Origin: Escherichia coli
GTDB taxonomy: Bacteria; Pseudomonadota; Gammaproteobacteria; Enterobacterales; Enterobacteriaceae
DNA length: 64,000 bases
Reading direction: 5' to 3' (one strand)
Assembly: GCF_003018235.1 (NCBI RefSeq)
Contig: NZ_CP027437.1
The notes under the pieces were generated by a model. That model saw only the letters and a list, made by a program, of their open reading frames with translations. It was not told where the DNA came from and did not search any database. Shown piece after piece: positions 39,315 through 46,705 of this stretch; within the stretch, counting starts at the first letter, position 1, and each line of letters starts with the position of its first letter. The position numbers were made by a program, and so were the translations under genes.

Positions 39315-40172
39315 TTACCGTAACCTTTTGTAGGAACCACAGACATTAATTTTATTTCTGACAACTTCTTTCATCGCATCCATACCGACGCGCATATAAT
39401 AACGAGGATCATTACCCTGCGGATTTTCCGCAAACCAGGCTTTAACCGCGCCAGCGAAGGCTATTTTTAATTCTGTGGCAACGTTCACTTTTGTGACGCC
39501 AAGTTCAATAGTGCGACGGACAAATTCATCCGGGACATCGCTGGCACCATGCAGCACCAGAGGAACATCCACCACTTCACGAATTTCCGCCAGCCGCTGG
39601 AAATCAATCTTCGGCGTTTTGCTGTATAAGCCGTGCGCCGTACCAATCGCTACCGCCAGGCTGTCGACGCCAGTCAGTTCGACAAAGCGTTTAGCTTCTT
39701 GTGGATCGGTCAGGAATGCACTTTCGGCGTCAACGCTCATGTCATCTTCAACACCGCCCAGGCGGCCCAGTTCTGCTTCCACGCTGCAATCCTGGGAGTG
39801 GCAGAAGTCGACAACCGATTTCACCAGCTTCACGTTCTCGGCAAACGGGAAATGACTGCCGTCGATCATCGCGCTGCGCACGCCTGCGTGGACTTTACGG
39901 CGAATATCATCCAGCGATTCGTGGTGGTCGAGATGCAGCGCCAGTGGCATGTTGTAGGTTGTGGAATAGGCACTACACAGGGCGTAGATCTCTTCCAGCG
40001 CGATATGTTTAAAGGTCCCCGGCGTTCCGGCGAGGATCACCGGCGATCGCATTTCACTGCACACTTCGAGGATCGCCTGGATCGTCTCGGCGTTATGAAT
40101 GTTAAAGGCAGGCACCGCGTAGCCATTGGCCTGGGCGTCCTGTAACAGATATTTGGTGGAGATAATGCTCAT
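39315..40172 (-). CDS. kbaY: Tagatose-1,6-bisphosphate aldolase KbaY (AgaY)
   Basis: 285-aa [39 protein letters not shown]; class II aldolase. Confidence 0.92.
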
Positions 40173-40184
40173 AATGCGATCCTC

Positions 40185-41339
40185 TTATGCCTGCCACGGA
40201 TGAATGATTACGCCTTGCACCACGCGGTTAACGGTGCCACTGGCTGATGGGGTATCCGGCGTATTGCCCATGTGCAGCGACTGCATCAGTGCAAACGTCT
40301 GGGCGTACATCAGGAAGCAAAATGCCTGCTCAACGTCGATAAAGTGACGGGACGGCGGCAGGATGATATGTGGACCGGCGGTAATAACGTCGTTGCTTTC
40401 CGCGGCGATAGCGATTACGCGCATCGCCTGGTTGTCACGACGAAGTTCAGCCAGCAGATCAAGATCATACTGGCGGGTGTAAGGGTGGCTGGAGACAAAT
40501 ACCACCACCAGCGTTTCGTTATCGACCAGCGATTTTGGTCCATGACGGAATCCGGTCGGGGAATCATAAAAGGCCGCCAGTTTACCCGCCGTCAGTTCCA
40601 GTACTTTCAGCGCCGACTCGCGTGCTGCGCCCTGTAAGCCACCGCTGCCGAGATAAACGATCCGTTTCCACGGTGCGTAACCAAACACACCTTCGCTGAA
40701 ATCGCTCAGTGAGGTTAGGATCGCCTGGCAACGATCCGCCACGTCGCGGAAGCTCTGGCTGTTGATCGTCTCAGGTGCGAAAACCGCGAGGCAGCTGGCC
40801 ATCATGGTGGTAATGCTGCTGGTCATCGCAAAGCCGCGATCGTGCGTTTCTGCGGGCATCAGCAGGGCAAACGCGTTGTCGCTGTTGATCGCGTTTTGGT
40901 AAAGAGCGCCCGCTTCGTTGCAGGTGATCGGCAGGTGATAGCACTCGGGTACAAATTGATTTGCCAGTTCCACGGCGGCGACGCTTTCCGGGCTGTTGCC
41001 GGATCGACCGAAGGAGATCAACAGCAGCGGATGAGCTGGATTCAGGTAGTCCATCGGATTGGTGACCAGATCGGTGGTCGGTACGGCGCTGAAGTTTTTA
41101 CCGGTATGGCTGGCGAGCCACGGCGCGATGATGTCACCGATAAATGCCGAGGTTCCGGCTCCGGTCAGGATTACCCGCAGATTCTCTTTGCGCAGTAACG
41201 GTTCAAGGAAGTTATTGAGCGCGGAACGTAGCGCGTCGATGTTGGTGAGTGAACGGATCCATGCGCGAGGCTGATGGCGGATCTCTTCTTCAGTCCATGT
41301 ACCGGTTGCGGCAGCAGCAGGGGTGTAATTTTCTGGCAT
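40185..41339 (-). CDS. agaS: Galactosamine-6-phosphate deaminase/isomerase AgaS (tandem SIS domains)
   Basis: 384-aa ORF MPENYTPAAAATGTWTEEEIRHQPRAW. Confidence 0.93.
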   Translation of the reverse strand: MPENYTPAAAATGTWTEEEIRHQPRAWIRSLTNIDALRSALNNFLEPLLRKENLRVILTGAGTSAFIGDIIAPWLASHTGKNFSAVPTTDLVTNPMDYLNPAHPLLLISFGRSGNSPESVAAVELANQFVPECYHLPITCNEAGALYQNAINSDNAFALLMPAETHDRGFAMTSSITTMMASCLAVFAPETINSQSFRDVADRCQAILTSLSDFSEGVFGYAPWKRIVYLGSGGLQGAARESALKVLELTAGKLAAFYDSPTGFRHGPKSLVDNETLVVVFVSSHPYTRQYDLDLLAELRRDNQAMRVIAIAAESNDVITAGPHIILPPSRHFIDVEQAFCFLMYAQTFALMQSLHMGNTPDTPSASGTVNRVVQGVIIHPWQA

Positions 41340-41379
41340 AACTCAATCCTTAGTCTGATGAACTTGACGTCGGGCGTTG

Positions 41380-41500
41380 TCGCTTTCGCTTACCTTTCGT
41401 TTCATTTCACTTGGTGATGTCTTTCGTTGATTAAAATCTATAGAAAAGAAACTGAAAGTTCAATGGAGAAAAAAGAAATAAAACGAAATTTGTGATCATT
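41380..41500. promoter_or_regulatory. agaS promoter region with AgaR-type operator repeats
   Basis: Clustered CTTTCGTTTC/GAAACGAAA-like half-sites (ctttcgcttacctttcgtttcatttcac, tctttcgttgat, aaaacgaaatttg), same motif family as the kbaZ-agaR spacer. Confidence 0.4.
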
Positions 41501-44155: not shown

Positions 44156-44918
44156 ATTCCTCTTTCTGTGCCGCAGGTTGAGTCGGTTCAGGAGATTTAC
44201 GCAGCAGATCGATCAGCGCCATCGCCAGCGCGGCGGCAGCAATAGCCAGCACCGGTAACTTGAGCCAGGCTGCGGCAACAAAGCCCAGGATGAAGTAGGG
44301 GATGTAGACGTTTTTCATCATGATTTTCAGCAGCACGGCAAAACCGATTGCTGGCATGATGCCGCCCGCGACGCCGAGGCCGTCGATTAATCGTTGCGGC
44401 AGGACATCAATGATGGTTTTGGCATGTTCTGCGCCGAAGTAGATAGGCAGGAAAGCGCAGAGAAAATAGAAAGTGCCGAGTGCCAGCAGTGCCAGATAGT
44501 TCACGCGTTCAATGCCGCGAGTATCGGCGTTCTCCGCCATCCGGTCGCAGCGGGACATTACGCCAGACATCACCGAGAACAGGAAGGTAATCCCCATCTG
44601 TACTGCGACAGCGAAAGGTACGGCGACACCGACCGCGACATCGGGTTTCACGCCAGTAGTAATGGCAAACGCCGTGCCGACGATAGTACCGATAATCACG
44701 TTAGGCGGTTGTGCGCCTGCCAGCGGGGCCAGCCCCATCCACACCAGTTCCAGCGTACCGCCGGTTAAAATACCGGTATGCAGATCGCCAAGTACCAGCC
44801 CGACTAACGGGCCGAGGACCACCGGGCGGTGCATATGGGTTAAGCCGTTAAACATATCCAGGCCAGCGATAAAGGCGATAATGCCCAACGCGAATGCCTG
44901 CAACAGACTGATTTCCAT
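44139..44918 (-). CDS. agaW: PTS EIIC component, mannose family (AgaW, full length)
   Basis: 259-aa hydrophobic ORF MEISLLQAFALGIIAFIAG. Confidence 0.88.
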   Translation of the reverse strand: MEISLLQAFALGIIAFIAGLDMFNGLTHMHRPVVLGPLVGLVLGDLHTGILTGGTLELVWMGLAPLAGAQPPNVIIGTIVGTAFAITTGVKPDVAVGVAVPFAVAVQMGITFLFSVMSGVMSRCDRMAENADTRGIERVNYLALLALGTFYFLCAFLPIYFGAEHAKTIIDVLPQRLIDGLGVAGGIMPAIGFAVLLKIMMKNVYIPYFILGFVAAAWLKLPVLAIAAAALAMALIDLLRKSPEPTQPAAQKEEFEDGI

Positions 44919-44928
44919 GATGAATCCC

Positions 44929-45402
44929 TCAAAGTAATTTAAAGAGGTCCACAGCAGGCTCTGTCGGGACGCCCTGAACGAAGCATTCCACCCCAGCGGC
45001 TTTCAGGTCGTTAAATGCTGCGATATCGCCCGCATCCACAGAAACCGTTTTGGCGATTTGTTGCTTGCCATTGGCGTAGTGCATATTGCCAACGTTAATG
45101 CGATTCACCGGAACGCCACCTTTCACCAGCGTCAGGAAATCGGCAGGTGTTTTACAAACCAGCAGGATTTTCTGTCGATCGGCGGCGCGATGAATGTTGT
45201 CGATGACTTTTTGCAGCGTCCAGAAACGTACGGCGATCCCTTCTGCCAGTACCATTTCCATCAGGTTTTGTTGTACCGGATCTTCGGCAACCTCATCGTT
45301 GGCTACCAGCACCAGATTTGCCCCCGCAAATCCGACCCACTGAACGCCGACCTGACCGTGAATCAAGCGTTCATCAATCCGGCTTAAAATAATATTTGGC
45401 AT
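44929..45402 (-). CDS. agaV: PTS EIIB component, mannose family (AgaV)
   Basis: ORF 44929..45438; start at MPNIILSRIDERLIHGQVG (EIIB-Man phosphohistidine loop); 157 aa. Confidence 0.88.
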   Translation of the reverse strand: MPNIILSRIDERLIHGQVGVQWVGFAGANLVLVANDEVAEDPVQQNLMEMVLAEGIAVRFWTLQKVIDNIHRAADRQKILLVCKTPADFLTLVKGGVPVNRINVGNMHYANGKQQIAKTVSVDAGDIAAFNDLKAAGVECFVQGVPTEPAVDLFKLL

Positions 45403-45424
45403 AGCGTGTTCCTCTTTGTTTTGC

Positions 45425-46705
45425 TTATTGGCCTTCACAGGCTGTGTGGTACTGCGCCAGGATGTCCTGAATATGGTTGATAATGAGTTCCCGTGGCGTC
45501 GGTTGCAGCTCGCCGGAGCGAACTTTCACGTATTGCAGCGGCAGATACTGGCTGATGAGCGGCAGCGGAATCGGTGAATCCGCCAGATTACGAACCAGAT
45601 GGGCGAAAGCGTCATCAATCTGGCTGTCCGGCCAGTAATAGCGCACGCGATCCGAGTAGCTATAACCACGCGCCAGACGACGCGCGTTGCCGTCACCGTG
45701 GTAGTGGCTTTGCCAGTATTCCGGGCGGTCGAGCATCACGTTTTCCAGCACCTGACGCAGACCGGAACAGGCTTTCGCTGGTACCAGTTCTTCTTCAATC
45801 GCCGCCAGAGAAAAAAGGGCTTCACGCAGGGCGAAGGTCAGCGCCGGGCCAACTTTCAGAATGGCAAAGTGGTCAATCACCAGCTGGCGCAACGATTGCG
45901 GCGTTTGGTAATCGGTAGAGTGCGCTTCGAAAATCAGCGTTTCGTAGTTTTCGACCATCTGGCTTAATGCGGTCGCTTTAGCTGGCTGATAATCAATAAC
46001 GTTGGTGTGATCGAATTCGACGCCGGGTTGAACCACCAGGGCAATAATGCGTGGCCAGATGGCATTCAGGCCCTGCTTTTCAAAGGCGTGGCGATGGGCT
46101 TCCAGTGTGGCGCGGGCGGCATCCGGCGTGGTGACCGCCAGCTCGCTTAAGGTTTCATGCGCGCCGCCAGGTACCGGTACTTCGGTACCAATGACATACT
46201 CCAGATCGGCCGCGCCAAAATGTTCACGGCAGGTTTCTTCCGCCACTTTCGCCAGACGAGCGGCGCGTTCGGCCACGATGTCATCAGTTAAGGGAATCGG
46301 ATCGTCCTGACAGGACATGCTGCAATCAAGGTGAATTTTTTTGAATCCTGCCGCCACGTAGCTTTTAATCAAATCATCGGCATTGGCCATTGCCTGAGCG
46401 GCAGGCAGGTTTTGCCAGCGGTTTGGCCCCAGATGGTCGCCACCCAGAATCAACGCATCCTGTGGGAAATTCAACGAGTCGGCGAGCTGACAAACAAAGC
46501 CGCGAAAATCGGCGGGCGTCATTCCGGTATAACCGCCGAACTGGTCCACCTGATTGGAGGTTGCTTCAATCAGTAACGGTGTTTGGTTTGCACTGGCGTA
46601 GCGGATTGCAGCTTCCAGCACCAGCGGATGTGCGGAACAAACGGCATAAATCCCATTTGTTTTGCCCTCTTTGTGCTGTCTCACCATTTCTGTCAGATGT
46701 TTCAC
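45425..46705 (-). CDS. kbaZ: Tagatose-bisphosphate aldolase accessory subunit KbaZ (AgaZ)
   Basis: 426-aa [40 protein letters not shown]. Confidence 0.93.

Follow-up and report, generated by a model that had tools for sequence, protein, structure and literature searches.

Which sugars remain accessible to an Escherichia coli strain in which the distal genes of the aga/kba cluster have been exchanged for others, and how might such a layout have come about? The question is raised by a 64 kb stretch of E. coli contig NZ_CP027437.1 (assembly GCF_003018235.1; "the window" below always denotes this whole stretch), in which the gene cluster for the use of N-acetylgalactosamine (GalNAc) and galactosamine (GalN) occupies positions 39315-46705 of the minus strand. 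Both amino sugars derive from intestinal mucin. We read the region, with a probability of about 0.78, as a rare alternative haplotype of the E. coli cluster for GalNAc catabolism under AgaR control; the pathway belongs to a well-known system, of which this gene arrangement is a rare variant.

In this pathway, GalNAc is taken up and phosphorylated by a mannose-family phosphotransferase system (PTS) composed of AgaV (enzyme IIB, EIIB), AgaW (EIIC), AgaE (EIID) and AgaF (EIIA), and the resulting GalNAc-6-phosphate is deacetylated by AgaA, with NagA as a back-up (PMC3668189). GalN-6-phosphate is converted to tagatose-6-phosphate by the deaminase/isomerase activity of AgaS, not AgaI; agaS is essential and agaI dispensable. 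Tagatose-6-phosphate is then phosphorylated, and tagatose-1,6-bisphosphate is cleaved by KbaY and KbaZ (PMC3668189).

The GalNAc branch of the cluster

The genes of the cluster and its regulator are the following (lengths in amino acids, aa; scores against NCBIfam models with their curated cut-offs):

46954-47763, plus strand: agaR, DeoR-type repressor, 269 aa, divergent from kbaZ; NF040755, 465 bits, cut-off 260
45425-46705, minus strand: kbaZ, non-catalytic tagatose-1,6-bisphosphate aldolase subunit, 426 aa, GTG start; NF012002, 898 bits, cut-off 707
44929-45402, minus strand: agaV, GalNAc PTS EIIB, 157 aa; NF008508, 319 bits, cut-off 180
44139-44918, minus strand: agaW, GalNAc PTS EIIC, 259 aa, full length; NF040757, 411 bits, cut-off 300
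43271-44149, minus strand: agaE, GalNAc PTS EIID, 292 aa; NF040760, 616 bits, cut-off 500
42819-43253, minus strand: agaF, EIIA common to the GalNAc and GalN PTS, 144 aa
41689-42822, minus strand: agaA, GalNAc-6-phosphate deacetylase, 377 aa, full length; TIGR00221, 284 bits, cut-off 226
40185-41339, minus strand: agaS, GalN-6-phosphate deaminase/isomerase, 384 aa; TIGR02815, 632 bits, cut-off 529
39315-40172, minus strand: kbaY, catalytic tagatose-1,6-bisphosphate aldolase subunit, 285 aa; NF009375, 661 bits, cut-off 542

The preliminary description of this DNA had taken agaV-W-E-F-A to be intact open reading frames, and this holds for the cluster as a whole: none of the eight genes from kbaZ to kbaY contains an internal stop, and the encoded proteins align end to end and without gaps with their O157:H7 and O145:H28 counterparts, at 97.4-100% identity. 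AgaR is identical to the repressor of both strains, and AgaW to that of O157:H7; AgaV (98.7%) and AgaA (98%) are nearly so. The curated cut-offs are exceeded by KbaZ, AgaV, AgaW, AgaE, AgaA, AgaS, KbaY and AgaR. AgaF fell outside the listing of family hits, for which a display threshold of 1e-80 was used; it is 98.6-99.3% identical to the annotated AgaF proteins of O157 and O145 and retains Gly91, the residue whose replacement by serine abolishes GalNAc use and makes the O157:H7 spinach-outbreak isolates GalNAc-negative (PMC3668189).

The ratio of nonsynonymous to synonymous substitution rates (dN/dS), calculated for the window genes against O145:H28, a lineage about 2.5% diverged, is 0-0.2 for the cluster genes, which, judged by these values, are under purifying selection. 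Given these ratios together with the family scores of 284-898 bits, the cluster is not a chance pattern. The coupled stop/start overlaps that had been proposed for agaV-W-E-F-A are found at two junctions, agaF/agaA, where stop and start are merged in ATGA, and agaW/agaE, which share 11 nucleotides (nt), but not at the others, which are gaps of 10-22 nt.

Putative AgaR operators are present at both promoters of the cluster. The window was scanned with the sequence WRMMTTTCRTTTYRTTTYNYTTKK, which we take to be the operator consensus of Ray & Larson 2004; six sites with three mismatches or fewer occur in the 64 kb, and at least five of these fall in the two aga promoter regions:

46914-46937, 46819-46842 and 46737-46760: operator-like sites in the agaR-kbaZ intergenic region, with 0, 2 and 3 mismatches, respectively
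41391-41414 and 41469-41492: operator-like sites upstream of agaS (Ps promoter region), with 0 and 1 mismatch

A further match at 36354-36377 (plus strand), which falls between the terminator of malY' and the agaB stump described below, has four mismatches and was dismissed as too weak; it could be due to chance or be a relic.

The segment between kbaY and rsmI

Homology to O157:H7, as detected by blastn, extends from garP/garD to position 39334, some 20 nt before kbaY ends, and resumes at 34054, in the stop codon of rsmI, which places the breakpoints at 39333/39334 and 34054/34055. Between these points, ordinary E. coli has an agaBCDI-yraHIJK block of 8.1 kb, in place of which the window has a 5.3 kb segment (34055-39333); agaBCDI has been replaced, not simply deleted. 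Downstream of kbaY lie, in this order, a 137-nt spacer, two genes that we designate malX' and malY', a terminator, a stump of agaB, a LysR gene and a gene for a protein with the metallo-beta-lactamase (MBL) fold:

39213-39240, minus strand: conserved stem-loop between kbaY and malX', approximately 40 nt before the start of the latter
37606-39177, minus strand: malX', glucose-family PTS EIICB, 523 aa; TIGR02004, 733 bits, cut-off 632
36421-37593, minus strand: malY', pyridoxal phosphate (PLP)-dependent C-S (beta) lyase of the PatB/MalY family, 390 aa; TIGR04350, 364 bits, cut-off 340
36390-36415, minus strand: intrinsic terminator directly 3' of malY', an 11-pair stem followed by a T-rich tail (TTTTATTGCC)
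36153-36329, minus strand: agaB 5' remnant, approximately codons 1-46 followed by unrelated sequence, two genes and 3 kb downstream of kbaY
35197-36132, plus strand: LysR-family regulator pseudogene; compared to O145:H28, whose allele is intact (314 aa), one nucleotide is inserted at 35274 (+1) and four are deleted at about 35870
34159-35115, minus strand: MBL-fold metallo-hydrolase gene, intact, 318 aa, Pfam Lactamase_B; 98.4% identical to the O145:H28 protein
33192-34055, plus strand: rsmI, the conserved left flank

The missing genes were sought by tblastn of the K-12 proteins AgaB, AgaC, AgaD, AgaI, YraH and YraK against the 64 kb. AgaC, AgaD, AgaI, YraH and YraK yielded nothing except the paralogues agaW and agaE, whereas AgaB detected its paralogue agaV and a short fragment at 36114-36329. 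The proposed absence of agaBCD-agaI thus stands for agaC, agaD and agaI but has to be amended for agaB, of which a 5' stump persists. Within the stump, 135 bp (36183-36317) are 94-98% identical to agaB of about 5270 E. coli genomes; alignment with K-12, O157, O145 and Escherichia sp. MOD1-EC7003 places the agaB breakpoint after ...CAACAG. An additional stop (W24 to TGA) is peculiar to the window, and the O145:H28 stump is annotated by the Prokaryotic Genome Annotation Pipeline (PGAP) as an incomplete IIB pseudogene. The entire yraHIJK chaperone-usher fimbrial operon, present in K-12, is gone together with agaBCDI; neither this loss nor the genes now occupying the place figured in the preliminary description.

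The two genes that follow kbaY are separated by a 12-nt gap, have a GC content of 42-47% (41.7% for malX') compared to 51-58% for the aga genes, and show dN/dS values of 0.07 (malX') and 0.09 (malY'). The K-12 malX-malY pair of the MalI regulon has the same composition, an EIICB followed by a PatB/MalY-type lyase, with both family models passed, but is located between malI and add; MalX' is 54% identical to K-12 MalX, compared to 61-67% identity to Firmicutes proteins, and MalY' and K-12 MalY share 31% identity and align at the PLP-binding lysine. The best match of MalY' among solved structures is Bacillus subtilis PatB (6qp3). No LacI-type, MalI-like reading frame was found beside malX'-malY', the neighbours being kbaY, the agaB stump and the LysR gene. 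Because of the low identity, the different locus and the lack of malI, malX' and malY' are, on these comparisons, paralogues rather than orthologues of K-12 malX and malY.

The cassette is probably transcribed by read-through from the agaS promoter: it has the same orientation as kbaY, the spacer contains neither an AgaR site nor a terminator, and a strong terminator closes the array. The consensus scan found no AgaR site upstream of malX'. The spacer stem-loop was modelled by RNAalifold on 14 Enterobacterales loci and consists of nine pairs, with compensatory changes in 8-9 of them; it is preceded by the conserved motif ACCTCnCAAATAT, is not followed by a U-tract on the coding strand, and is absent from Aeromonas, whose kbaY-malX' spacer is 38 nt long. 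Possible roles are stabilisation or processing of the mRNA, or attenuation. Rfam produced no match above threshold for positions 33000-48000; one candidate for this hairpin, 'Termite-leu', was discarded at E=0.058 and 26 bits (gathering score, 51), as was anti-Shine-Dalgarno pairing of a conserved ACCTC with GGAG, which RNAalifold did not predict.

The LysR gene is convergent and is intact in O145:H28 and three sister contigs; the MBL gene adjoins it in divergent orientation. The MBL protein scores 203 bits against the AidB lactonase model NF047979 (cut-off 360), a distant likeness, and its precomputed Pfam list includes PF23023 (Anti-Pycsar Apyc1). Its closest relatives beyond E. coli come from Erwiniaceae and Enterobacter (74-88% identity), and the homologue search identified it as an accessory gene of Enterobacterales, with no donor emerging. 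Origin of the replaced segment from a mobile element was considered and rejected: there is no insertion sequence (IS), integrase or flanking or terminal repeat at its edges.

Predicted phenotype and relation to known aga genotypes

By gene content, the region agrees with the aga/gam regulon as far as the GalNAc branch, the repressor and the enzymes of catabolism are concerned, and departs from it in the GalN-branch features agaBCD and agaI. The E. coli C regulon comprises 13 genes (agaR, kbaZ-agaVWEFA and agaS-kbaY-agaBCDI) and confers growth on both GalNAc and GalN (Aga+ Gam+; Hu et al. 2013, PMC3668189). The window shares with it the gene order and orientation from agaR to kbaY, the repressor, and the operator-like sites at both promoters, but lacks agaC, agaD and agaI, retains only about 46 codons of agaB, and has malX'-malY' added between kbaY and the agaB stump. 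The K-12 cluster has the same chromosomal position, with garD-prlF-yhaV on one side and rsmI-lpoA on the other, but represents the reverse case: a 2.3 kb deletion, described by the same authors (PMC3668189), left agaW as a 402-nt pseudogene and agaA truncated and removed agaE and agaF, whereas agaBCDI and yraHIJK were kept. The contrast between K-12 and the C/O157 type that had been drawn in the preliminary description is correct; in MG1655, agaW and agaA are annotated as pseudogenes, agaE and agaF are missing, and the published account agrees (PMC3668189). The closest functional parallel is O157:H7 (EDL933/Sakai type), where the GalNAc branch is likewise intact, with proteins 97-100% identical to those of the window, and the GalN branch defective. 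There, the defect consists in nonsense codons in agaC and agaI, with the genes still in place, and the amber codon in agaC renders the strain Aga+ Gam- (PMC3668189); in the window, the genes are physically replaced, together with yraHIJK.

Because agaBCD is lost while agaVWEF, agaA, agaS and kbaYZ are intact, and published genetics fit, GalNAc-positive and GalN-negative is the best prediction for the phenotype, as the preliminary description had proposed. The intact agaVWEF, agaA, agaS, kbaYZ and agaR genes, along with the operator-like sites, would allow GalNAc use, and without AgaBCD, free GalN would have no dedicated entry route. That the cluster functions is supported by the retention of Gly91 in AgaF and of the operator-like sites, and by the purifying selection.

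Two other outcomes have to be weighed. The cluster might be cryptic or decaying, its reading frames open but non-functional, like the neighbouring LysR and agaB remnants; the two frameshifts in the adjacent LysR gene, the extra stop gained by the agaB stump in the window, and the apparently split kbaZ and truncated kbaY of MOD1-EC7003 would fit such a scenario, but with all eight aga/kba genes and agaR at full length, dN/dS at 0-0.2 relative to a lineage some 2.5% diverged, and AgaF Gly91 and the operator-like sites retained, we consider it very improbable. It is also quite unlikely that the strain is Gam+ after all, with another permease, MalX' or a mannose-type PTS, importing GalN as GalN-6-phosphate for processing by AgaS and KbaYZ. 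Every step downstream of transport is indeed intact, malX', directly after kbaY, is intact and under purifying selection and encodes a glucose-family EIICB that could, in principle, carry an amino sugar, a Citrobacter cluster (sp. R56) without agaVWEF has MalX' as its sole permease, and K-12 suppressors were reported to take up GalNAc through the N-acetylglucosamine (GlcNAc) PTS (PMC3668189). The nonsense mutation in agaC, however, makes O157:H7 Gam- on its own, which argues that E. coli has no efficient back-up under normal regulation; moreover, an amino-sugar substrate of MalX' is conjecture, and the MalX'/MalY' module is found also without any aga genes.

Distribution, history and possible role of the cassette

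Among 5426 complete E. coli genomes, the approximately 14 kb region from malY' to garD is fully matched in 30 (0.55%), most of them O145:H28; the others include TB06052, N96 and 2020CK-00188. The malX'-malY' pair alone is found in exactly the same 30 genomes, always on the chromosome and never on a plasmid, in a single layout throughout. The agaBCDI block is present at a coverage of 80% or more in 5246 genomes (about 97%), and agaCDI is wholly missing from 143. Two separate agaBCDI places occur in only 7 records among the complete genomes; hence, at least 23 of the 30 genomes with the island have no second copy. The layout is not a local assembly artefact given that the window differs from a public E. 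coli assembly, GCA_011972655.1, by 5 mismatches in 21,173 bp (99.98% identity). Indexed public assemblies contain the exact MalY' sequence in 88 blocks; in sister versions, which are 98.7-98.9% identical, the LysR gene is intact, and E. coli contains at least three versions of the segment, diverged by 1-3.5%. Taken together, these data show a genuine, rare layout that occurs in several diverged lineages of E. coli. Its genes are routinely annotated in RefSeq; literature searches found no published description of the layout, although an earlier description in the AgaR-regulon literature is possible.

The best comparison within the species is O145:H28 strain RM12581 (NZ_CP007136.1), which shares the garD-rsmI gene layout, malX', malY', the agaB stump, LysR and MBL at 97.6% nucleotide identity over 25.4 kb. 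The two differ in three respects, the window showing the opposite state in each: in RM12581, the LysR gene is intact, the agaB stump is free of the extra stop, and the yhaV toxin gene has an internal stop and is annotated as a pseudogene. In the window, yhaV (47818-48282, minus strand) is intact, and its product is 99.4% identical to the O157:H7 protein.

A scan of other genera with MalY' as the query (one genome per species) found the cassette directly after kbaY in Kluyvera (MalY' identity of 83%), Enterobacter (79-80%), Citrobacter sp. R56 (79%) and Enterobacteriaceae strain RIT691, in the same chromosomal place, adjoining rsmI-lpoA. Aeromonas (56-58%) has the order kbaZ-agaS-agaVWEF-agaA-kbaY-malX'-malY', confirmed by family models, with a 38-nt gap between kbaY and malX'. 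These loci resemble the window in the succession of kbaY and malX'-malY' but contain neither an agaB stump nor a LysR-MBL pair, and in Aeromonas the internal gene order is different. Escherichia sp. MOD1-EC7003 combines the two layouts in the order kbaY-malX'-malY'-agaB-agaC-agaD-...-yraHIJK-rsmI, and its malY'-agaB junction matches that of the window up to the deletion point. In this genome, kbaZ is apparently split in two, with reading frames of 238 and 177 aa, and kbaY, at 245 aa, is short (own-locus coordinates 826-2172 and 7422-8159), so that its aga cluster may be decaying. The MOD1-EC7003 layout is the intermediate that is expected if the cassette formerly sat between kbaY and agaB in Escherichia. 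The most economical history, given this intermediate and the kbaY-malX'-malY' succession common to other genera, is one in which the cassette would be an old resident of the locus, mainstream E. coli would have lost it, and the lineage of the window would have kept it and later exchanged the part from the 3' portion of agaB to yraK for LysR-MBL.

A recent horizontal replacement, in which the interval from the 3' end of kbaY to rsmI was imported from another enterobacterial genus through recombination in the homologous flanks, would account for the GC content of malX' and malY' being below that of their neighbours, for the restriction of the layout to 0.55% of the complete E. coli genomes, and for the occurrence of the same cassette beside kbaY in Kluyvera, Enterobacter and Citrobacter. 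We nevertheless regard it as rather unlikely. The nearest MalY' outside Escherichia is only 83% identical, the segment itself holds an agaB stump 94-98% identical to ordinary E. coli agaB, and one Escherichia sp. has the cassette along with agaBCD-yraHIJK. At synonymous sites, the island genes (0.04-0.14) and the flank genes (0.03-0.16) of the window have diverged from O145:H28 to a similar extent, which is evidence against recent import, as are the existence of at least three E. coli versions diverged by 1-3.5% and the edges free of IS elements, integrase and terminal repeats.

Returning to the GalNAc cluster as a rare haplotype with an old resident cassette, several points weigh against this reading. 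Function could be affected by the few residues in which the proteins differ from alleles known to work. The absence of agaBCDI covers the 64 kb window, and the rest of the source genome may contain a second copy or a different route for GalN. That malX'-malY' are co-transcribed with agaS-kbaY is deduced solely from how the genes are oriented and spaced and from the fact that neither a terminator nor an AgaR site was recognised in the spacer, which holds a conserved stem-loop. The cassette differs in GC content from the aga genes (42-47% vs 51-58%), and MalX' is nearer to Firmicutes proteins than to E. coli MalX; the cassette was thus acquired horizontally at some earlier point, such that 'ancestral' applies only within Enterobacterales. 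Finally, the cassette occurs away from aga genes in Hafnia (where it stands alone), Carnobacterium and Robertmurraya, which weakens a functional tie to GalNAc.

The pairing of a PTS permease with a beta-lyase suggests a sugar-amino-acid conjugate as the substrate, and MalX'/MalY' may be an uptake-and-release route, with the PTS responsible for import and phosphorylation of the conjugate and the PLP lyase for removal of its amino acid by beta-elimination; in Enterobacteriaceae and Aeromonas, this route may feed the amino sugar into the AgaA/AgaS/KbaYZ pathway. One candidate conjugate is GalNAc-alpha-O-Ser/Thr (or an S-linked analogue), a leftover of mucin breakdown. The cassette directly follows kbaY in two bacterial orders, and in Citrobacter sp. 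R56, with the cluster agaR-kbaZ-agaA-agaS-kbaY-malX'-malY', it encodes the sole permease. Further points in favour are an exported protein encoded after the cassette in Enterobacter and Aeromonas, to which one source gives the name 'predicted alpha-N-acetylgalactosaminidase', a RidA gene following the lyase gene in Carnobacterium, and two peptidase genes that, with other PTS components, flank the lyase homologue of Clostridium. Against the proposal, the module stands alone in Hafnia and in Bacillaceae. The modules of Carnobacterium and Robertmurraya, which adjoin an RpiR-type regulator, and the Clostridium context also speak against a link to amino-sugar use, and, on balance, we consider a conjugate route, with GalNAc-alpha-O-Ser/Thr as the candidate, unlikely.

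The exported protein is encoded after malY' in Enterobacter and Aeromonas sobria (629 aa with a signal peptide; own-locus coordinates 11191-13080, 11189-13078 and 11413-13299). The versions of the two genera are 50% identical and contain an LLDDGWDD motif; no sequence match was found in Pfam, NCBIfam or the Protein Data Bank (PDB). Its source names are 'enterotoxin', 'YacT' and 'predicted exported alpha-N-acetylgalactosaminidase', and its linkage to the aga cluster would fit a glycosidase better than a toxin. In Citrobacter sp. R56, genes for an AgaI-like deaminase (below the family cut-off; own-locus coordinates 1063-1758) and a GntR/UTRA regulator (331-1059) lie upstream of agaR, and a Fic-domain gene lies between malY' and rsmI.

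The aga genotype already accounts for nutritional differences between E. coli strains, namely K-12, C and O157:H7. The haplotype described here is a fourth genotype, in which the GalNAc branch is intact, the GalN branch and the yra fimbriae are removed, and an additional PTS/lyase cassette is present. It is typical of O145:H28 enterohaemorrhagic E. coli and some other lineages and, accordingly, could mark lineages or account for carbon-source phenotypes. More broadly, aga operons with an attached MalX/MalY-like cassette are found across Enterobacteriaceae and in Aeromonas; mainstream E. coli has seemingly lost the cassette.

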